The position numbers were made by a program, and so were the translations under genes. A stretch of 64,000 nucleotides of DNA from Bacteroidia bacterium (GTDB lineage: Bacteria; Bacteroidota; Bacteroidia; UKL13-3): NCBI GenBank assembly GCA_023151275.1, contig JAKLJI010000004.1, positions 4,946 to 68,945 on the forward strand, written 5' to 3'. How positions within the stretch are numbered: the first letter of the stretch is position 1; each line of letters begins with the position of its first letter. The notes below the pieces were generated by a model that had not been told where the DNA came from, did not search any database, and worked only from the letters and a program-made list of their open reading frames with translations. This document shows, piece by piece, positions 4,090-61,092 of the stretch.

Positions 4090-4250
4090 GATTTATGCAC
4101 TGACAGTTTGAAATACAAATTTACCGGATTCAGTATTAAGGTTTTCCTTGAATCTGCCTTAAATTAAATGAGGTTTACCTAAGTTATTGCATGTAATTTT
4201 TTGGATTTAAGGGGAATCTGCAATAAAAAGCGTTTCCTGAATGGAGTTGG

Positions 4251-4450
4251 AACTTGCCTGAGGGGTAGAAGCGGTACCCGCCGGTAAGGGCTGATTGAGG
4301 CTGCGCGTTTTGCGGGGCTGCCGGCAGAAAGCCACCGCAAAGCGCATGCAGGCTCTTCAGCACTTGACGGGGAGTACAAGCGGATGACCCGGCCTTTTGC
4401 CTGCACGGATTTTTGTTGTTTGAGGAATTGACCTGGCAAAAGGACAGGCC
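4251..4450 (-). repeat. GC-rich about 200-nt intergenic element, copy A (inverted relative to copy B at 56081-56283)
   Basis: It shares a core caaaaggccgggtcatccgcYtgtactcc (28/29 nt). Both copies have similar ends: ggcctgYccttttg at the 5' end and cccctcaggca at the 3' end. A terminal stem ccttttgcc/ggcaaaagg corresponds to ccttttgggc/gcccaaaagg in copy B, so the change is compensatory. The overlapping ORFs are in different frames in the two copies, which argues the element is non-coding. Confidence 0.6.
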
Positions 4451-25232: not shown

Positions 25233-26078
25233 ATGGCATCAAAATCCCTTGCCGAACGGCTAACTGCGCATCAATATCCTAGCTGGTACTTTTCTCAGCC
25301 TTGGGTGCTTAAGGTGGTTTATGCCTGGTTTGCCTTGATTTACCAGCGAGTTGGGTTGAGTTTCAAAGGAATTCACACAATCCTCCGCAAATTGCCAGCC
25401 GGGGCAACTGTATTGGATGCCGGATTTGGTGAAGGACAATTTTTGTATGGCAATGCCCGTCGAAATCCCCACTTACATTTCGTTGGCTTGGACTTCAATT
25501 CAAATACTCTTGAATTAGGCCGATTTTTGATTCAACACAAGGGCCTAAAGAATGTAAAATTGAGTCAGGCCGATTTGTCCAAACCTTGGCCTGTGTCCTC
25601 AAATTCATTGGATGCTATTTGGTGCATTGGTGTTTTGCACTGTATCCCCAATGATACAGAAGTGTTGAAAAATGCGTCAAATTGCCTCAAACCAAATGCT
25701 CCGCTGCTAATCTACTCCCCACTTCAATCGCGGTTGGTGCTTGGTCCCTACAAATATGTAATCCGGAAATACCCGGGTTACGACCGTTTGTATAGGTCCC
25801 ATGATTATTCAATGGAAGAATTGGTTGAAAAGGCAAAACAAGCTGGACTTCAATTACAGGCTGCCCGCTTTACACATGGCCTGCCCGGGATTATAAGTTA
25901 TGAACTTTTTACCTTATTGGTTACCCTAATTACCCATGGTCATTTCCCGTTAAAGGTGCTTTCAGCCCTATTCTTTTTACCTTGCCTTCCACTTGTGTTA
26001 ATTCTTCGTTGGATTGATCAGCTTTTTCCGCCCCAAAAGCAGGGCAACGGATTATTGATTGAGTTTTTGAAAGCATAA
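25233..26078 (+). CDS. class I SAM-dependent methyltransferase with a C-terminal membrane segment
   Basis: Motif I VLDAGFGEGQF, and a hydrophobic C-terminal tail. Confidence 0.6.
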   Translation: MASKSLAERLTAHQYPSWYFSQPWVLKVVYAWFALIYQRVGLSFKGIHTILRKLPAGATVLDAGFGEGQFLYGNARRNPHLHFVGLDFNSNTLELGRFLIQHKGLKNVKLSQADLSKPWPVSSNSLDAIWCIGVLHCIPNDTEVLKNASNCLKPNAPLLIYSPLQSRLVLGPYKYVIRKYPGYDRLYRSHDYSMEELVEKAKQAGLQLQAARFTHGLPGIISYELFTLLVTLITHGHFPLKVLSALFFLPCLPLVLILRWIDQLFPPQKQGNGLLIEFLKA

Positions 26079-26122
26079 GGGCTACTGTGTTTTTCATGCT
26101 GCTTTCTTTAGATTTGCCCTGA

Positions 26123-26743
26123 ATGAAAAATCTTCGTCTGTTGGCTTTTTTGCTGTTAGCGGTAATTCTGGTTGTTGACCAGATTGTGAAATTGTATGTA
26201 AAAACTCACTTTGTACTTGGTGAGGAGATTCATGTTTTGGGTAACTGGTTTCGAATCCATTTTACTGAAAACTATGGAATGGCTTTTGGGATTGAATTTG
26301 GCGGCAAAACCGGAAAAATATTTTTGACACTATTCCGTATACTGTTTGTTGCCGGTATCCTTTGGTACATTAATAATCTTATTGAAACCAAGGCTGGCAA
26401 GGCTTATGTGTTTTCATGGACCATGATTGCCGCCGGTGCTTTGGGTAATATTATTGATTCTGTTTTCTATGGCGTGTATTTTGGATACGATTCCTGGTTT
26501 CATGGAAGGGTAGTGGATATGTTTTATTTTCCCTTGATTCAAACCCGAATTCCTGAATGGTTCCCGTTTTGGGCTGGTGAGGATTTTGAATTTTTTCGCC
26601 CGGTTTTCAACCTGGCAGATGCCGCAATTTCCATTGGTTTTGTATTGATTTTGTTAACTCAAAATCAAGCCAATCCAGCTCAGCCAGCAACCACTGCCGG
26701 CGAATTGGGTTCCGAAAGTGAAGCTGAAATCAAACCTGAATAG
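26123..26743 (+). CDS. lspA: lipoprotein signal peptidase II
   Basis: Four TM helices. Conserved NYGMAFGI and FNLADAAISIG boxes. Confidence 0.85.
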   Translation: MKNLRLLAFLLLAVILVVDQIVKLYVKTHFVLGEEIHVLGNWFRIHFTENYGMAFGIEFGGKTGKIFLTLFRILFVAGILWYINNLIETKAGKAYVFSWTMIAAGALGNIIDSVFYGVYFGYDSWFHGRVVDMFYFPLIQTRIPEWFPFWAGEDFEFFRPVFNLADAAISIGFVLILLTQNQANPAQPATTAGELGSESEAEIKPE

Positions 26744-26835
26744 GCATTTTGTCAGACGAAAATTCTGGCATAGCTATTGAATTCCATGACCGGCATTCGT
26801 ATTCTGCGAAAGCCTTATATATTTGACTAAATACC

Positions 26836-27525
26836 ATGAGCATGAATTTTGGAAAAGAATTTCGCAACTATGCGATTAAACACAAAGGTTTTTCCAGCCT
26901 GAAAGTGGATGCGTATATCGAAAGTACCGCTGAAAACATGACCCGCACCGTAATTGAGGAGCGCCCCATGAATTTCCGGGAAATTGATGTGTTCTCGCGT
27001 TTGATGGCCGACAGGATTATTTTCCTGGGCATGCCTATTGATGATTATGTTGCCAATATCATTCAGGCGCAATTGCTGTTTTTAGATTCAATGGACGCCC
27101 GCCGTGATATCCAAATGTATATCAATAGTCCGGGTGGTTCTGTTTACGCAGGATTGGGAATTTATGATACCATGCAATGGGTAAACCCTAGCGTGGCAAC
27201 CATTTGTACAGGTTTGGCCGCATCTATGGCCGCCGTTTTGTTGTGTGCCGGAGAAAAAGGCAAGCGTTCTGCTCTTCCACATGCCCGCGTTATGATTCAC
27301 CAACCTTTGGGTGGCGCACAAGGACAGGCTTCTGATATTGAAATTACAGCTCGCGAAATCCAAAAGCTGAAAAAAGAATTGTATGATATCATTGCCTCCC
27401 ATAGTGGACAACCTTTTGAAAAAGTTGAGGCCGATAGCGACCGCGATTATTGGATGATAGCCAGTGAAGCCAAAGAATACGGCATGATTGATGATGTATT
27501 GCTGAAAACAAAAACCGAGAAGTAA
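26836..27525 (+). CDS. clpP: ATP-dependent Clp protease proteolytic subunit
   Basis: The catalytic Ser lies in GLAASMAA, the catalytic His in MIHQPLGG, plus the Asp. There is an N-terminal extension. Confidence 0.9.
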
Positions 27526-27625
27526 TTCGGTTTGCAAATTTCAGCACAAACTGAATCACCATCCGGTTAACCCATTTTTTCGGTTATTGGCCGAAGGTGT
27601 ACATCCCTTTTTTCAGCTTTTGTTT

Positions 27626-27667
27626 GAAAGCGCGGTCTGAAAAGGCCGCGCTTTCTGCATTTTTGTT
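27626..27667 (+). terminator. rho-independent terminator after clpP
   Basis: gaaagcgcgg-(loop)-ccgcgctttc followed by tgcatttttgtt. Confidence 0.6.
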
Positions 27668-27938
27668 GCCGCTTTTTCATCAGCAAGTGCGACATTGATT
27701 TTTACTTTTTTTTCGGTTTTGTGCAGAAAATCAAAAACTGTATTCTTTTTAGTACTTATTGATGTTTTCCACAAGGTTTTGTTGAAACAGCTTGTTTTCT
27801 TCAAGTTGCAAGAATTGCCAGTAATTTGGTTGATTTTTCGGGTTGAGATGAGGTGTAGTCCTTGACTGGCTTGAGCTGACGAATTTTGAAAGCTATTGAA
27901 TGAATTTGCTATGAGAAATTTGCATCAAACCAAGTCGT

Positions 27939-30757: not shown

Positions 30758-31152
30758 AACAGGCTCAATTTAATCAAATTCGTGCTTAAAACACTTGCTC
30801 GCGTTCAAGATTCAAAATGAGCATTCATTCCAATTTTTTTTGGGCATGCCCCCTTGGAGGATAATTATTTTCAGCTTCGCAATGCGTTTCCACCAAGGGG
30901 TCGGGTGTTTGCTCCAATCTTTTTGCCTGCCCTTGCGACGCCGGCCCGCGCGCGCAAAAAGGATTTCCACGTCACCCCCTCATGCGGGTTTCCGTTATCC
31001 AATCTTACTTTCCTCGCCGATTTAAATATGGAATACTACCTGGTTAAAATTTTTAGTACATATTAAATGCCTGGGCATGCAACGCCGAATAATCCCATTG
31101 GAAATCAAATTGGAAGAAATAAGGACTTCTTAATTGCCTATTTCGGCTTTAC

Positions 31153-54792: not shown

Positions 54793-56055
54793 ATGGTAGA
54801 TGTTGTTCTCGGCCTCCAATGGGGTGATGAAGGAAAAGGAAAAATTGTTGATGTGCTAACCCCGGAGTACGACGTGGTTGCTCGTTTTCAGGGTGGTCCA
54901 AATGCTGGCCATTCGCTCGAATTTGGAGGTAATAAATACGTGCTCAATACCATTCCTTCGGGTATTTTTCATGAACATTGCATCAATATCATCGGCAATG
55001 GCGTAGTGGTTGATCCGGTTCAACTCAAAAAGGAAATCGAAAAGGCCTCAGCTACCGGTGTAGATATCAGTAAAAACCTCTACATCTCACAAAAGGCTCA
55101 CCTCATTTTGCCAACTCACCGCTTGGTAGATGCGGCCTCCGAAGCCAAAAAAGGCGAACACAAAGTGGGTTCAACGCTGCGTGGTATCAGCCCAACTTAC
55201 CAAGATAAAATTGGTCGTAGTGGATTGCGAATTGGCGATATTCTTTCGCCTGATTTCAACAAGAAGTACAGAAATGCTGCCAATATTCACTGCGAACTGC
55301 TCAACTCCTTAGGTTTTGAATACAACCTAAACGACCACGAGCCGGCGTTTTTTGAAGCCGTTGAATACATCAAGCAGTTTAAAATTATCAATAGCGAATA
55401 CTTTGTAAACAACCTCATCAGCCAGGGCAAAAAAATCCTGGCAGAAGGTGCACAAGGTACTTTGCTCGATATCGACTTTGGCTCTTACCCATTCGTTACT
55501 TCTTCCAATACAATCACCGGCGGAGCTTGCTCCGGTTTGGGTATCGCGCCACAGCATATTCAAAAAGTATATGGCATTTTTAAGGCCTATTGTACCCGCG
55601 TGGGCAATGGACCTTTCCCAACCGAACAGGAAAATGAAACCGGTGAAATGCTTCGCAAATTAGGCCATGAGTTTGGTGCAACAACAGGTCGCCCCCGCCG
55701 CACAGGCTGGCTCGATTTGCCAACTTTACGCTATGCCATTATGCTCAATGGCGTTACTGATTTAATTTGCACCAAAAGCGATGTGCTTAGCGGCTTCGAA
55801 GAGGTATTGGTTTGCGATAGGTATGCCATCAACGGACAAGAAACCAACGAAATTCCATTCAGTCTTCAGGATGTAAATGCAGAGCCCTTATACCGCAATT
55901 TCCCGGGATGGACAGGCGACCTGAGCAAAATCAGAACCTATTCCGATTTGCCTGAAACTTTCCGCAAATACATGAGCTATGTAGAAGGCCAAATTGGCGT
56001 TCCGGTAAATGTAATTTCGGTAGGTCCCGACCGCGAAGAAACCATCCGTCGCTAA
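54793..56055 (+). CDS. purA: adenylosuccinate synthetase
   Basis: QWGDEGKGK P-loop. 420 aa. Confidence 0.95.
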   Translation: MVDVVLGLQWGDEGKGKIVDVLTPEYDVVARFQGGPNAGHSLEFGGNKYVLNTIPSGIFHEHCINIIGNGVVVDPVQLKKEIEKASATGVDISKNLYISQKAHLILPTHRLVDAASEAKKGEHKVGSTLRGISPTYQDKIGRSGLRIGDILSPDFNKKYRNAANIHCELLNSLGFEYNLNDHEPAFFEAVEYIKQFKIINSEYFVNNLISQGKKILAEGAQGTLLDIDFGSYPFVTSSNTITGGACSGLGIAPQHIQKVYGIFKAYCTRVGNGPFPTEQENETGEMLRKLGHEFGATTGRPRRTGWLDLPTLRYAIMLNGVTDLICTKSDVLSGFEEVLVCDRYAINGQETNEIPFSLQDVNAEPLYRNFPGWTGDLSKIRTYSDLPETFRKYMSYVEGQIGVPVNVISVGPDREETIRR

Positions 56056-56080
56056 ATCAAATTCATTTTCAGATTTGGTG

Positions 56081-56283
56081 GGCCTGCCTTTTGGGCCTCG
56101 GCAACTTCATGCACGAAGTAAATTCCTGCCGCCCAAAAGGCCGGGTCATCCGCCTGTACTCCTCGGCCGGGGATTAAGCGTCTGCATGGCTGCTGTCGGG
56201 GCTTCCTGCGGTCGCCCGCCCTCAGCCGCATCCGCTAAATCCCCGTCCTGTGGGGTACTGTCTCCTGCCCCTCAGGCAGAGGG
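56081..56283 (+). repeat. GC-rich about 200-nt element, copy B (same family as 4251-4450)
   Basis: See copy A. It lies 25 nt downstream of the purA stop and immediately upstream of the ATPase/DUF4276 islet. The overlapping 71-aa ORF is judged spurious. Confidence 0.6.
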
Positions 56284-56507
56284 AAGGTGATCTTAATTCT
56301 AAAGGTGCTAGAAAATGGAAGGAATTTTGAAATGACTTCGAAAAAAAATTGCCTCATTTTTTGATGTCAAACAGGTAGTCTTGTTATTGTCCTGAATCTC
56401 TGGAGTTGCATCATTCAAAGTGGAAGAGTTTAGAATTGTACTTTCTATGGCTTTCTTTTCAAAAACGAGTACGTTAACCTAGTTTCGGGAGGTTGAATTG
56501 TTAAAAT

Positions 56508-57698
56508 ATGCGAATTGAGAGTATTACAATCGAAAACTATAAGGTTTTTAAAAACACCACAATAAAGAATCTTCCAAGGATGTCAGTTTTTTTAGGCCCA
56601 AATGGTTCAGGAAAATCCACCTTTTTTGATGTTTTTGGCTTTCTAAGCGATTGTTTGCAAAACAATGTCAACATTGCCATAAACAGAAGAGGAGGTTTCC
56701 ACGAATTAATTTCTAGGGATACTGACCATTCCAAAAATATTAAGTTTGAGGTGAAGTTTAGAAATCCTATTCCTAATGAAGATCGACCTCCGTTAGTTAC
56801 TTATTACATCGAAATTGGATTCAATCAAGGAAGGGCCTTTATTAATAAAGAGGTTCTAAAATACCGAAGAGGTCAATATGGAAAACCTTGGCATTTTTTG
56901 GACTTTTCAAACGGTGAAGGATATGCTATTTCAAATGAGGATGAGTATGATTCAAATGAAAGTAAAGAAAAAAGGGAATTCCAAAAGGTAGCGAGTCCTG
57001 ATATTATGGCTATTAAGGGTTTAGGGCAATTTGAGAAATACAAAGTATTAAGTGCTTTTCGGACTTTGCTTGAGCGTTGGTATGTTTCAAACTTTAAAAT
57101 AGAATATGGTAGGAATTTATCAGAAACAGGAATCAGTGAACATTTATCTGTTACAGGGCATAACCTCGCACAGGTTACAAAATATTTGTACGATTACCAT
57201 AGAGATACATTTAATAAAATTTTAGAAAAATTACCAAGACGCATTCCTGGAATAAATAAAGTCGAAGCGAAGGAAACAGAAGATGGAATGATTTTACTAA
57301 AATTTCAGGATAAAAGCTTCACGAATCCATTTTTATCAAAATTCGTATCCGATGGTACCATTAAAATGTTTGCCTTTTTGATATTATTAAACGATCCAAA
57401 CCCTCATCCTCTTTTGTGTATTGAAGAACCAGAGAATTTTCTTCATCCGGATTTGCTCTTACAGTTGTGTGAAGAAATACGGGAGTATGCAGAAAGAGGG
57501 GGACAGGTTTTGGTATCTAGTCATTCTCCTGATTTTGTAAATGGGGTAAGAGTAGAAGAACTATTTTTTCTAGTAAAAAAAGATGGGTTTAGCGAAATCA
57601 GGTCCGCATTTGAAGATGAGACAGTAAAAGAACTTGCAAAGGAGAACCAGCTTGGTTGGCTTTGGCGCAACAATTACATCAACGGTGCCAATCTATGA
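56508..57698 (+). CDS. SMC/ABC-type ATPase (AAA_15/AAA_21-like), the ATPase component of a two-gene OLD-like module
   Basis: The N-terminus IESITIENYKVFKNTTIKNL..FLGPNGSGKST has a RecF/SMC-like Walker A. The C-terminus has the Walker B LLCIEEPENFLHP and the H/D-loop VSSHSPDF. Its stop overlaps the start of the next gene (ATGA). Confidence 0.75.
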   Translation: MRIESITIENYKVFKNTTIKNLPRMSVFLGPNGSGKSTFFDVFGFLSDCLQNNVNIAINRRGGFHELISRDTDHSKNIKFEVKFRNPIPNEDRPPLVTYYIEIGFNQGRAFINKEVLKYRRGQYGKPWHFLDFSNGEGYAISNEDEYDSNESKEKREFQKVASPDIMAIKGLGQFEKYKVLSAFRTLLERWYVSNFKIEYGRNLSETGISEHLSVTGHNLAQVTKYLYDYHRDTFNKILEKLPRRIPGINKVEAKETEDGMILLKFQDKSFTNPFLSKFVSDGTIKMFAFLILLNDPNPHPLLCIEEPENFLHPDLLLQLCEEIREYAERGGQVLVSSHSPDFVNGVRVEELFFLVKKDGFSEIRSAFEDETVKELAKENQLGWLWRNNYINGANL

Positions 57699-58270
57699 AA
57701 TTCATCCATATTTTCGTTGAAGAACCTTCAATAAAGCGAGTGCTTGATGTGATTATTCCGAAGTTGTTACCTGAAGGCGTATTTTATTAGGTTTATCCAC
57801 ATCAGGGGAAGCAGGTCCTTGAAAAAGCAATTATTTCCGCTCTTCCAAGTCTTAGTATGATCCCAGGTTCACGAATAATAATTTCACGAGATCAAGATAG
57901 TGCGGATTGTAAGGAAATAAAAAATAGGCTTGAGCAAATTGCACAGGGCAGGCTATCCTGTCCTTTTAAAATTCGGATTGTTTGCAGGGAGCTTGAAAGC
58001 TGGTTTTTAGGGGACCTCTCTGCATTGGCTAAAACCTATCCTAGATTTAAACCAGAATCAATCTCCCATAAAAGTGAATTGCGTTTTGTAGACGAAATTT
58101 TCAAACCATCTACTTTGCTACTAAAGGTTATCCCTGAATATGCACAATTTGCTTTCCTGCCTAAAATTGAAAATGCTGAGAAAATAGCTCCTAATCTGGA
58201 TTTGAATAGGAATACTTCGAGTAGTTTTATTCAAATGATACAAGCGATTAAATATTTAGCAGAGATTTAA
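57695..58270 (+). pseudogene. DUF4276-family (TOPRIM-like) gene interrupted by a single in-frame TAG at 57788-57790
   Basis: Continuous reading from ATG 57695 gives MKFIHIFVEEPSIKRVLDVIIPKLLPEGVFY, then a stop, then VYPHQGKQ...SMIPGSRIIISRDQDSADC.... The track ORF 57857-58270 is the downstream part. The N-terminal pattern MK.I.IFVEE....L..I.P.L matches the remembered DUF4276 N-terminus. The FVEE and RDQD motifs are TOPRIM-like. Confidence 0.55.
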
Positions 58271-58434
58271 GTTGGAATAGAGAATCGTCTTCGATAATGT
58301 AATTGGTTGCTGTTTTTTTAGCAAAGGAATTACGAATAAACCTTGGTGCCAGAAGACCACTCAATTCATTTCAACTAATTTATTGAGGGAGAATTTCGTT
58401 AAGCCCTTTTCGGAGTTATCGAGAAAAAGTATGT

Positions 58435-58788
58435 TCAATGGCTGTCGGATTTCGCTTCTTGCTCGTCTCTTTTTGAATCATAAAAAAGAATACCTACCCG
58501 TTGAATGTGGTTGATAAACTCAGGGTTGTTAAGCGAAGTAAAATCAACCAAATCTACAGCTACTGGTAGGCTGCTTTCGGCACAATCTGCCAATATTCGG
58601 CTTATGGTTTTGGGTTGTAACCCGGTATTCATTACCGCCAGGTCAATATCACTGCCAATAGTATAATTTCCTTTCGCCCTGCTTCCAAAAAGATGTACCT
58701 CCTTAACATCGGTATATTTTTTAAAAATGGCATACAATTCCCCAATGTTTCGCTCTGTTAGGCCGAATTTGTTCTGTTCTTTACTCAT
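58435..58788 (-). CDS. minimal nucleotidyltransferase (MntA/HI0073-like antitoxin)
   Basis: LFGSRAKGNYTIGSDIDLAV is a GSx9-13DxD pol-beta nucleotidyltransferase motif. Confidence 0.8.
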   Translation of the reverse strand: MSKEQNKFGLTERNIGELYAIFKKYTDVKEVHLFGSRAKGNYTIGSDIDLAVMNTGLQPKTISRILADCAESSLPVAVDLVDFTSLNNPEFINHIQRVGILFYDSKRDEQEAKSDSH

Positions 58789-58802
58789 CTAATCTCATCA
58801 AA

Positions 58803-59225
58803 CTAGTTAGCTTGTGATTCATTAATTTGTTGCTGAAAGAATTCGTAAAGTGCTTTTAATGCCGGAAAGGTTTCTTGGCGTAATTGCTCTTCTGCACGTT
58901 CAAACTTTTGACCATCATAATCGTGCGATAGTTCATTTCGTAGGTCCAGCCCGTCTATTAACTCTTGCGCATAGCCAATATAGCCGCCTTCTTGCGCCTT
59001 CCTAAAGGTGTCTTTAGGCGAAGGTTTAAATGCAAAGCCCTTTTCTACTAGAAAATCTTTTGTAGTTTTCCAAGCCAGTTCCAGGGTGAATTCAAAGCGC
59101 TGAACCAGCCCATTTCGTTCCAGTTCGTTTAATTCATCTTCTGCCATAGCCTCACTCAGACGATTAAACGCTCTCTCGAAATTGGCAAATCGTTGTTTCC
59201 AGCGTATGTCTTTTTCTTCCATCAT
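58803..59225 (-). CDS. HEPN-domain protein (nucleotidyltransferase-substrate-binding, HI0074/HepT-like toxin)
   Basis: Rx4-6H motif (RNELSHDY) in an about 140-aa all-helical protein, adjacent to the minimal nucleotidyltransferase. Confidence 0.75.
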   Translation of the reverse strand: MMEEKDIRWKQRFANFERAFNRLSEAMAEDELNELERNGLVQRFEFTLELAWKTTKDFLVEKGFAFKPSPKDTFRKAQEGGYIGYAQELIDGLDLRNELSHDYDGQKFERAEEQLRQETFPALKALYEFFQQQINESQAN

Positions 59226-59446
59226 TCAATTTGCTCTTTAAATCTACCAACTTCTATTATCCAAATAAATCAGTAATCTCTTGGTAATCAAAAATTATTC
59301 CCATAGGTTCTCCAAAAGTTGGCTGTGATTGTTTAAGCTGGGTCGACATAAGGCAAATTTACATCTTATCGGCAATAACACTCCATTTGCCAATTTCCTT
59401 CTCAGAATTGCGGAGCATCATTGATGTTGAGTTGATTGTAATGGCT

Positions 59447-59490
59447 CAAAAAAAATCCTGCTAGCCTTTAACTAACAGGATTATTTTTCG
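59447..59490 (-). terminator. rho-independent terminator of the SIMPL-domain gene
   Basis: atcctg-(loop)-caggat with T8 on the minus strand. Confidence 0.55.
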
Positions 59491-59495
59491 AGGAT

Positions 59496-60239
59496 TTACT
59501 TGTTCAACAACTGGTACCGAATTTCAACTCGTTCCGAAAATTCAATTTCCTGAATGCTGAAGTCGGTTGAAAATTGCTGTCCGCTTGCATCAGCCACCGC
59601 TGCAGGAGCCATCCATTTCATTTCTGCATTTACAGGTGCATGCAGTTGTTCGGCTAAGTGGTAACGGATATATTCTACGTTGCCAACTTTCATTCCAGAG
59701 GCTTCGGCTAGTGCATTGGCGCGAATACCTGCATTTTTAACCGCAATCTTAATCAATTCCAATTCTGTTTTTTCTTTCAATGCCTCCGAGCATTCGTTGC
59801 CCATTGAAATGGTTAAATCGGCGCTGGTATTTTGCGAGCTAAGGTTTTTATAAACCTTCAACAAGCGCTGCTTATCCAATGGAAATTTAACAACATAACT
59901 TTGGGTTGCACTAAATCCAATCCGTTTTGCTTCTCCATTCTTTCCATAATCAAAGCGTGCATTTACCGAGAAATTGCTTAGTTTTATTTGTTCCTCAGTA
60001 AAGCCTTCTGCTTTCAATTGCTTGAGAATTTCTTGCTGCCTGCGCGCTAGCTTTTCCAAACTTTCCGATTCTGTTTTTGCATCTGCATTCAGATTTAGGT
60101 ATAAAATGGCAACGTCAGGAATTACCAATTTCCGAGATTCTCCTGCAAGTGCAATTCCTGCTGCTTGTGCTTGTACCTGCTGACTTTTTCCTGCCACAAC
60201 CAGCAACAGGAGAATAAAGAATAGACTTAATTTTTTCAT
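59496..60239 (-). CDS. SIMPL-domain (DUF541, YggE/Bp26-like) periplasmic protein
   Basis: The likely true start is MKKLSLFFILLLLVVAG, a signal peptide; the track ORF runs on to 60356. LVIPDVAILYLNL and the C-terminal ...ALAEASGMKVGNV... follow the SIMPL pattern. Confidence 0.6.
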   Translation of the reverse strand: MKKLSLFFILLLLVVAGKSQQVQAQAAGIALAGESRKLVIPDVAILYLNLNADAKTESESLEKLARRQQEILKQLKAEGFTEEQIKLSNFSVNARFDYGKNGEAKRIGFSATQSYVVKFPLDKQRLLKVYKNLSSQNTSADLTISMGNECSEALKEKTELELIKIAVKNAGIRANALAEASGMKVGNVEYIRYHLAEQLHAPVNAEMKWMAPAAVADASGQQFSTDFSIQEIEFSERVEIRYQLLNK

Positions 60240-60372
60240 GTGATTTCGTTTGAGATTATTTTGTGAACACTTATGTATTGCCTCAAGCCATTCAAATTTC
60301 ATTCCAAAGCAATTTCCGGTTGAGTGCATGAATTTGAAGGCCTCAGTAAGACCCATTTAAATTCTTTAGTGA

Positions 60373-61092
60373 TTAGCCTTTGAGGCACCTTTTGTACAGT
60401 TGAATGGTGTTTTCCAATCCCAACATGAGTGAATCACAAACCAATGCATGGCCTATGGAAACTTCCTCCAACCAGGGAATGCAGGTTTTAAAGTAGGCAA
60501 GGTTTTCTAAACTTAAATCATGGCCTGCATTCAAACCCAAACCAAGCTCTTTGGCGCGTTCTGCTGCTTTAACATAAGCCTCAATTGCCTGTTCTTTTCC
60601 TTTTGAATATTGACTTGCGTAGGCCTCGGTGTACAATTCTATCCGATCCGTGCCACATTCATAAGCTCCTTCTACCAAGCGAACATCAGGGTCTACAAAA
60701 ATGGAAGTACGAATGCCTGCATTTTTAAAGGTTTGAATCATGGATTTCAGGAAATCTTGCTCCTTATACGTGTCCCAACCGTGGTCGCTGGTGAGTTGAT
60801 TACTAGCATCGGGCACTAGCGTAACTTGGTGTGGTTTATTCTTTAAAACCAGTTCGACAAACTTTTCTTCTTTAGGGTTGCCTTCTATATTTAGCTCAGT
60901 TCCAATAACTTCTTTCAAGGCAGAAACATCTGAATAGCGAATATGTCTTTCATCCGGCCGGGGATGAATGGTGATGCCATCTGCCCCGAATTGCTCACAA
61001 AAAACGGCCATCCGAATAATATCAGGGTTATTTCCTCCTCTTGAGTTACGGATTAACGCTAATTTATTTATGTTTACACTTAATTTTGTCAT
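60373..61092 (-). CDS. pdxJ: pyridoxine 5'-phosphate synthase
   Basis: MTKLSVNINKLALIRNSRGGN N-terminus; the start is taken at the internal Met of the track ORF. Confidence 0.85.
   Translation of the reverse strand: MTKLSVNINKLALIRNSRGGNNPDIIRMAVFCEQFGADGITIHPRPDERHIRYSDVSALKEVIGTELNIEGNPKEEKFVELVLKNKPHQVTLVPDASNQLTSDHGWDTYKEQDFLKSMIQTFKNAGIRTSIFVDPDVRLVEGAYECGTDRIELYTEAYASQYSKGKEQAIEAYVKAAERAKELGLGLNAGHDLSLENLAYFKTCIPWLEEVSIGHALVCDSLMLGLENTIQLYKRCLKG

Follow-up and report, generated by a model that had tools for sequence, protein, structure and literature searches.

Several described defence systems combine an ABC ATPase with a TOPRIM protein. PARIS, a class 4 OLD-like system, consists of the ABC ATPase AriA and the DUF4435 TOPRIM protein AriB, and in the methylation-associated defence system (MADS) of Pseudomonas aeruginosa, deletions of mad3 and mad4 weaken the defence. 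MADS3-4 has been counted among the ABC-ATPase+TOPRIM systems (Burman et al. 2024), and DUF4276 has been placed in the TOPRIM superfamily, equated with Mad4 and published as a Menshen effector (2025 Menshen paper). HEC-01 (Hma-embedded candidate 01, PADLOC-DB v2) is an ABC ATPase plus a TOPRIM protein sharing the BpOLD metal site; the family was discovered by its embedding in Hma and RM systems, and it gave no protection in an E. coli screen (Payne et al. 2024, bioRxiv 10.1101/2024.01.29.577857). In contrast, a cold-seep HEC-01 was reported, without detail, to protect E. coli B from one or more of the phages T4, T5 and T7 (2026 Nat Commun). With one screen negative and one positive, the experiments on HEC-01 give little and contradictory support for a role in defence.

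We analysed a window of Bacteroidia DNA, by which we mean the whole stretch of 64,000 nt, and found that its ATPase and DUF4276 pair is an already catalogued two-gene candidate defence module, PADLOC HEC-01. The ATPase matches the corresponding HMM and an adjacent, co-oriented gene matches the DUF4276/TOPRIM HMM; a functional HEC-01 system has both genes intact, and here the second gene is interrupted by an in-frame TAG (57788-57790). A first-pass annotation of the sequence had held that such a pairing was without an experimentally assigned function, which is not the case, because HEC-01 had already been tested twice and DUF4276/Mad4 had been published. The same annotation placed the pair in an islet between purA and pdxJ, beside a HEPN/MNT toxin-antitoxin pair, and Pfam matches and coordinates agree with this layout:

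54793-56055: purA, left flank of the islet
56069-56320, no strand assigned: structured GC-rich repeat bordering the islet on its left, outside the module
56508-57698, plus strand: HEC-01-type ABC ATPase gene, 396 aa, apparently intact (Pfam, PADLOC)
56595-56621, plus strand: ATPase Walker A, GPNGSGKST, G30-T38 (sequence motif)
57411-57434, plus strand: ATPase Walker B, LLCIEEPE, residues 302-309 (sequence motif)
57513-57530, plus strand: ATPase H-loop, VSSHSP, residues 336-341 (sequence motif)
57695-58270, plus strand: DUF4276 / predicted OLD-like TOPRIM nuclease pseudogene, in the frame from the ATG overlapping the ATPase stop
57719-57724, plus strand: catalytic E9/E10 of the DUF4276 gene (sequence/alignment)
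57788-57790, plus strand: premature in-frame TAG, codon 32 of the DUF4276 gene (translation)
57857-58270, plus strand: residual 137-aa ORF, annotated as a DUF4276 family protein in the source MAG (MCK6610429.1)
57890-57898, plus strand: D66-Q-D68 of the DUF4276 gene (sequence/alignment)
58435-58788, minus strand: MNT of the HEPN/MNT toxin-antitoxin pair (Pfam Polbeta 6e-16, NTP_transf_2)
58803-59225, minus strand: HEPN (NTase_sub_bind) partner with intact Rx4H, RNELSH (PF08780, 1.3e-27)
between HEPN and pdxJ: SIMPL-family gene
about 60373-61092, minus strand: pdxJ, right flank of the islet

The HEPN/MNT pair is identified by its Pfam matches together with the motifs GSRAKGNYTIGSDID and RNELSH (GSx10DxD and Rx4-6H, respectively). 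A scan for sigma-70 promoters and terminators gave no useful signal, with fewer sites than in shuffled sequences.

The first gene had been read as an SMC/ABC-type ATPase with Walker A, Walker B and H-loop, and this was correct: the three motifs were located, and the protein matches Pfam AAA_21 (7e-30), AAA_15 (1.5e-20) and SMC_N (9e-11). In PADLOC it matches the HEC-01 model PDLC04144 over positions 1-395 of 395 (2.5e-167, 555 bits), and a second HEC-01 ATPase model, PDLC04182, with 418 bits. The AlphaFold2 model of the ATPase was poor (pLDDT 60.7) because the aligned sequences were too few and too alike, and Foldseek with this low-confidence model found ABC heads only (Rad50, PtuA, GajA, SMC and OLD), which we took solely as evidence for an ABC head. 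All columns that are invariant among 24 homologues are kept in the window ATPase, whose C-terminal tail LGWLWRNxYIxGANL is invariant, and because every invariant residue is kept, it may retain residual function without its nuclease.

The ATPase stop overlaps the start of the next gene in an ATGA at 57695-57698, as first annotated, with the TGA of the ATPase at 57696-57698 and the ATG of the DUF4276 gene at 57695-57697. The frame from this ATG reads MKFIHIFVEEPSIKRVLDVIIPKLLPEGVFY, followed by the in-frame TAG, then VYPHQ and, further downstream, IIISRDQDSAD. When the stop is read through, the 191-aa product exceeds the Pfam DUF4276 gathering threshold (33.1 vs 30.2 bits), consistent with the DUF4276 similarity claimed from its N-terminus, and it matches the HEC-01 models PDLC04143 (2e-36, 123 bits) and PDLC04202 (1.7e-35) over their full length. 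There was no match to Pfam Toprim_Old at E<=0.01, NCBIfam held no model for the small protein, and a PDB sequence search with the DUF4276 profile returned nothing meaningful, so a fold comparison was needed. An AlphaFold2 model was built from a 24-sequence alignment (mean pLDDT 94). It predicts the three-layer alpha/beta fold of TOPRIM domains, with a Glu after strand 1 and a DxD after strand 3: the invariant E9-E10 comes directly after strand 1 (residues 2-8), the invariant D66-Q67-D68 ends strand 3 (59-66), and the invariant E99/E101 lies beyond strand 4 (91-96). As modelled, the small protein is a DUF4276 protein with an OLD-like TOPRIM fold, and the glutamates and DQD motif that had been picked out as TOPRIM-like fall at the expected strand ends.

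All catalytic residues are still encoded, but the TAG splits the segment of strand 1 and helix 1, which holds the catalytic glutamates, from the DxD-bearing rest of the fold. The residual 137-aa ORF has neither strands 1-2 nor the catalytic glutamates and hence is unable to build the TOPRIM sheet. In this genome TAG serves as an ordinary stop codon, terminating 7 of 45 long ORFs of the window; the single tRNA found by an Rfam gathering scan of the window is a tRNA-Leu, and no suppressor tRNA was seen there. Position 32 is R, K, N or S in homologues and a stop in none of them. The 90%-identity protein cluster holds truncated products only (137, 137, 129, 81 and 81 aa), and DUF4276 homologues of ~190 aa are uninterrupted in more than 95% of cases overall, including all 80 genome loci retained in the survey described below. 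The local DUF4276 gene is a pseudogene, and the module in the window is not functional.

We scanned 185,579 species genomes for homologous pairs, and 287 loci were found, of which 80 were retained. The ATPase lies directly upstream of DUF4276 on the same strand, and both genes are uninterrupted, in 80/80 of these; the two genes overlap by 1-4 nt in 46/80 and overall mostly overlap or nearly abut. Among 1.84 billion representatives the DUF4276 profile found 1677 clusters, and the best 150 of these are all stand-alone proteins of ~190 aa, thus the split architecture is the rule. Hosts are Bacteroidota, Cyanobacteria, Desulfobacterota, Alpha- and Gammaproteobacteria, Verrucomicrobiota, Myxococcota, Acidobacteriota and Firmicutes, and 11 plasmids carry the ATPase. 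Identity of the ATPase is 70-99% in the 120 best database matches and 58-86% in the first 35 loci, with homologues at 70-89% identity across many phyla; that of the nuclease is lower, about 45-67% among homologues. Given this far stronger conservation, the ATPase may respond to something that itself changes little, for instance a structure in nucleic acid or a process of the host, more likely than to a phage protein that evolves quickly. In IMG/VR viral contigs the DUF4276 profile had no matches, and ATPase matches in the phage collection were distant only (<=35% identity).

The neighbourhoods of the pair were surveyed in 37 non-redundant loci by taking the three nearest ORFs on each side (219 ORFs). 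The flanks are heterogeneous and non-syntenic, and mostly housekeeping genes are found there (CstA, DAHP synthase, Era, MetRS, OTCase and dehydroquinase), therefore guilt by association is weak. Few defence-type genes recur among the neighbours: Uma2/PDC-S03 genes account for 12 ORFs, mostly immediately upstream of the pair in cyanobacteria; type I R-M genes occur in ~3 of the 37 loci, and AbiE, PD-T4-6 and PDC-M55 once each. In Runella slithyformis the pair stands alone, inserted between genes for a SIS-domain protein and an SDR. A minority of pairs lie near RM, Abi, Mrr or toxin-antitoxin genes: the pair in L086, of lineage L086-88, adjoins Mrr/NA-iREase, a HEPN gene and an antitoxin, and that on the Synechocystis PCC 6803 plasmid pSYSM lies among MNT/DUF86, RelE/HigA, HNH and a dnd-associated methyltransferase. 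Hence the context typical of defence islands that had been assumed for this locus is overstated: the HEPN/MNT neighbours are real, but homologous pairs are mostly solitary between housekeeping genes, with a defence-rich minority. The pair looks like a small mobile module that inserts anywhere and not like a resident of classic defence islands, and its non-syntenic, patchy distribution argues against a housekeeping role.

We conclude that the locus is very probably a horizontally acquired, now inactivated copy of a HEC-01-type ABC-ATPase/TOPRIM module, on the strength of the domains identified, a TOPRIM fold, genes that are strictly paired, a real lesion, decay in related strains and recent exchange. 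A defence role is the best reading of the ATPase/DUF4276 pair. The proposal of a candidate anti-phage module thus keeps its defence reading and loses its novelty, the module being HEC-01, and also its claim to a working local system, the nuclease being a pseudogene. That the pair is not immune at all, and is instead a selfish addiction-type module or a RecF/Rad50/OLD-like DNA-repair accessory made mobile by chance, is unlikely. Such a role would suit the mostly housekeeping flanks, the empty IMG/VR scan, the negative first screen of HEC-01 (Payne et al. 2024) and the conservation of the ATPase at 70-89% across phyla vs 45-65% for the nuclease, which is atypical for a sensor co-evolving with phage. 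It fits poorly with a non-syntenic location and patchy distribution, with a family discovered embedded in Hma and RM systems (Payne et al. 2024), with the one positive phage assay (2026 Nat Commun), with the requirement of the homologous Mad3/Mad4 for MADS defence, and with loci that are defence-rich (L086 and pSYSM).

Lineage L091-95 (four JGI metagenomes and GCA_020162015.1) is ~4% diverged from the window in core genes. Window and L091 agree at 99-100% of positions across the 2.7-kb tract 56448-59146, which comprises the ATPase, DUF4276, MNT (99.1%) and the greater part of HEPN. For relA, fur and purA, window and L091 show pS of 0.15-0.20 and 93-98% nucleotide identity, and the SIMPL region is only 78-91% identical. 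Because the islet is ~99-100% identical while flanking genes differ by ~4%, the comparison points to recent exchange of the islet between lineages. The ATPase region and islet have 31-35% GC, vs 43-48% in the flanks. A GC-rich repeated element beside the islet had also been noticed in the first-pass annotation, and it is indeed present at 56069-56320 with a second, inverted copy at 4218-4426, reaching 68% GC against a window mean of 41%. This element marks a recombination junction: the left junction of the exchanged tract falls in it, and in L091-95 a 135-nt piece of it is directly repeated, flanking a 1-kb insert with a response-regulator gene and an XRE-type HTH gene that is absent from the window. 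A metagenome scan with its 27-nt core matched the same species only.

Lesions in related lineages follow different routes. In L081-83, which are 99.2% identical overall to the window, one base is missing from the ATPase gene at 56629, so that translation ends shortly beyond Walker A. In L091-95 the DUF4276 lesion is a +1-nt frameshift located three bases from the nonsense change of the window, giving GTA TTT TAG TAA GGT compared with GTA TTT TAT TAG GTT. From the aligned codons, the most parsimonious history would start from an intact ancestor, GTA TTT TAT AAG GTT (VFYKV), with one lesion per lineage: AAG would have become TAG in the window lineage, and a G would have been inserted in the L091 lineage. 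Y at position 31 and K at position 32 are both present in homologues. In a third, unrelated lineage, L086-88 (at least nine contigs), a TAG occupies codon 26 and the ATPase is intact. All three independent lesions thus lie within codons 26-32. This clustering exceeds naive chance and is explained only partly by ascertainment, which contributes because an ORF long enough to be annotated survives only when the lesion is N-terminal. Between window and L091 there are ~6 differences in the 573 nt of DUF4276 and 1 in the 1188 nt of the ATPase. The three amino-acid differences between the two DUF4276 alleles are all at conserved positions: the window has V41 where 23/23 homologues have D, and M55 where 23/23 have K/R, and L091 has Q22 where 21/23 have P. 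Because these differences fall on invariant positions, decay is indicated.

It is very unlikely that the ATPase has been kept as an orphan for a separate function, say together with HEPN/MNT or with a nuclease in trans, the locus being remodelled and not dead. Neither the window nor L091-95 has a disrupted ATPase, and the two differ only once in 1188 nt, but too little time has passed since the lesion for intactness to demonstrate selection, and L081-83 lost the ATPase. Likewise, the ATPase-DUF4276-MNT-HEPN tract moved jointly between lineages, and MNT/HEPN-type pairs occur near the Synechocystis pSYSM pair and a HEPN gene near the L086 pair; however, HEPN/MNT does not recur beside the pair in the survey of 37 loci, and an intact DUF4276 accompanies the ATPase in 80/80 loci. 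The chance is similarly slight that the clustered interruptions were themselves selected, either as throttling of a toxic TOPRIM protein or as a nuclease knock-out with the ATPase in a new role. If throttling were true, it would amount to a recurrent, selected cut to trace nuclease through read-through or +1 frameshifting.

Slighter still is the chance that the interruptions are a recoding or regulatory device, in which UAG read-through or a +1 slip would give traces of a toxic nuclease. Three lineages do carry lesions in codons 26-32 that all involve UAG, with downstream frames otherwise open, yet the lesions differ in position and type, and more than 95% of homologues, including 80/80 loci, are uninterrupted. 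If tRNA-Phe slipped by +1 on the UUUU of L091-95 (shifty stop U-UUU-AG), this would give a product of exactly the family length, but this product would have Ser where 23/23 homologues have F/Y/V/L/C. Moreover, all amino-acid differences between the two alleles are at conserved positions, DUF4276 has gathered ~6 differences in 573 nt vs 1 in 1188 nt for the ATPase, the ATPase was also destroyed in the sister strain (L081-83), and no suppressor tRNA was seen in the window. Decay therefore fits the lesions better than recoding. Finally, although the window comes from a metagenome-assembled genome, a sequencing, assembly or MAG-consensus artefact that hides an intact module is hardly credible, because the TAG at 57788-57790 is shared by five independent assemblies (the window and Logan L081-L084, from two studies) and the 90%-identity cluster has no full-length member.

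Returning to an inactivated HEC-01-type module, intact relatives translate the 396-aa ABC ATPase and the ~190-aa DUF4276 TOPRIM protein as a coupled pair. We infer an anti-phage role, a division of labour between sensor and effector, and an order of events. By analogy with PARIS, OLD, Gabija and the Mad3/Mad4 of MADS, the ATPase would act as an ATP-dependent sensor and keeper, which on sensing infection would license the metal-dependent TOPRIM nuclease to cut nucleic acid; this would stop the phage, though the cell would probably pay for it. In the window genome, the nonsense mutation at codon 32 leaves no full-length TOPRIM protein, thus rendering the module inert. The nuclease would have been lost first and the ATPase, frameshifted in the sister strain, later. 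Recurrent nuclease knock-outs are as expected of a costly or self-toxic effector. The locus offers little discovery value, the module type being in PADLOC, the TOPRIM nature of DUF4276 published and the copy in the window broken. It does, nevertheless, show clearly how a defence module is lost in steps in nature: two lineages whose shared islet is 99.9% identical each had the nuclease knocked out on their own. The intact pair on pSYSM of Synechocystis PCC 6803 (WP_011153560.1 / WP_011153561.1) provides a tractable test case for HEC-01.

Comparison with other systems sets the locus apart from most of them. PARIS has a DUF4435 nuclease, AriB, where the window has DUF4276, and its proteins are larger (AriA ~464 aa vs 396 aa, AriB ~305 aa vs 191 aa); PARIS was rejected because the small protein has no DUF4435/AriB match and the AriA models match weakly and generically (84-92 bits). 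In OLD proteins (P2 Old, B. pseudomallei, T. scotoductus) and GajA, ATPase and TOPRIM are on one polypeptide, whereas here they are separate genes; a fused OLD nuclease of classes 1-2 was rejected on these two genes, on Pfam matching only DUF4276, and on finding no fusions in the best 150 relatives. Gabija was rejected as well, since GajA models score 60-65 bits over a C-terminal stretch and the islet has no GajB-like helicase. The window ATPase weakly resembles AbiLi of AbiL (93 bits) and has weak HMM and structural similarity to PtuA of Septu, but the partners in these systems are AbiLii and the PtuB HNH nuclease, whose models do not match the small protein. In MADS, as here, the AAA_15/21 ABC ATPase (Mad3) has as its partner a TOPRIM protein of the DUF4276 family (Mad4), which is required for defence. 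The window proteins are not orthologous to Mad3/Mad4, however: the ATPase is only distantly similar to mad3 (PADLOC 107 bits), the small protein matches no mad4 model, and the islet has purA, MNT, HEPN and SIMPL as neighbours and no methyltransferase or other mad genes; membership of MADS was rejected on NCBIfam MAD3 (111.7 bits vs a cut-off of 420) and the absence of mad5-8. From HEC-01 the locus differs in the nonsense codon that this copy carries in its TOPRIM gene, and in belonging to a subfamily that is mostly solitary and not embedded in Hma or RM systems, and it shares with HEC-01 the same two-gene order, in which the ABC ATPase gene comes first and the small DUF4276/TOPRIM gene second.

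The low-GC islet between purA and pdxJ that carries the ATPase/DUF4276 pair is preceded by a structured, GC-rich element of ~240 nt, which recurs in the window and in the sister lineage L091 (~4% diverged in core genes).

56069-56320, plus strand: GC-rich element, intergenic
4218-4426: inverted copy of the element
30867-31020: further location of the element
L091, 4972-5102 and 6123-6253: the element in the sister lineage

Its GC content is 61-68%, compared with a window mean of 41%, and it is predicted to fold as a pair of long hairpins (-111 kcal/mol, z -5.5). Between the two window copies, which are 72% identical, ~7 compensatory pairs preserve the second hairpin. The element matches no Rfam family, and its exact 27-nt core was found among metagenome contigs in the same species only. 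In L091, a 135-nt piece of it forms a direct repeat that brackets a 1-kb insert of two genes, encoding a response regulator and an XRE-HTH protein, and this insert is absent from the window. The GC-rich element thus acts like a recombination junction or a cassette junction.

At the left edge of the islet, the stretch 55899-56486 looks like a short recombination tract. The sister-strain assemblies L081-83 (99.2% identical) differ from the window at 47 positions, and 43 of these are concentrated here, in the purA 3′ end, the GC-rich element and the intergenic DNA that precedes the ATPase gene. To the right, the divergent region 59147-60346 is that of a SIMPL-family gene.

59496-60356, minus strand: SIMPL-family gene, encoding a secreted/periplasmic SIMPL protein

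Identity of this gene to the L091 lineage is only 78-91%, compared with 95-98% for the surrounding core genes and 99-100% for the adjoining islet; the allele is either hyper-divergent or a replacement.

Within the pair itself, the end of the ATPase is strongly conserved.

57650-57695: ATPase C-terminus, last 16 residues, LGWLWRNxYIxGANL

This tail is nearly invariant in an alignment of 25 ATPases from several phyla, and its coding sequence reaches as far as the overlap between the ATPase gene and the start of the nuclease gene; we regard it as a candidate element for docking of the TOPRIM partner. As to naming, the A/B labels of two PADLOC-DB v2.0.0 models appear swapped for this subfamily: the 395-position ATPase model (PDLC04144) is labelled HEC-01B and the 190-position DUF4276 model (PDLC04143) HEC-01A, and the remaining HEC-01A models in that release are all ATPases.

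Among cyanobacterial loci such as L036, L037, L042, L043 and L066, several carry a co-oriented gene of ~194 aa immediately upstream of the ATPase. Uma2 (PF05685; PADLOC candidate PDC-S03) was matched by 12 of the 219 neighbour ORFs, a survey-wide count not tied to individual ORFs, and if the upstream gene accounts for these matches, such loci may represent a three-gene variant of the module. An intact homologous pair is present in a model organism and is convenient for experiments.

Synechocystis sp. PCC 6803 plasmid pSYSM (NC_005229.1), 25994-27735: intact pair (L099), WP_011153560.1 (AAA family ATPase) and WP_011153561.1 (DUF4276)

Its ATPase is 50% identical to that of the window, and the pair is surrounded by MNT/DUF86, RelE/HigA, HNH and dnd-associated methyltransferase genes.
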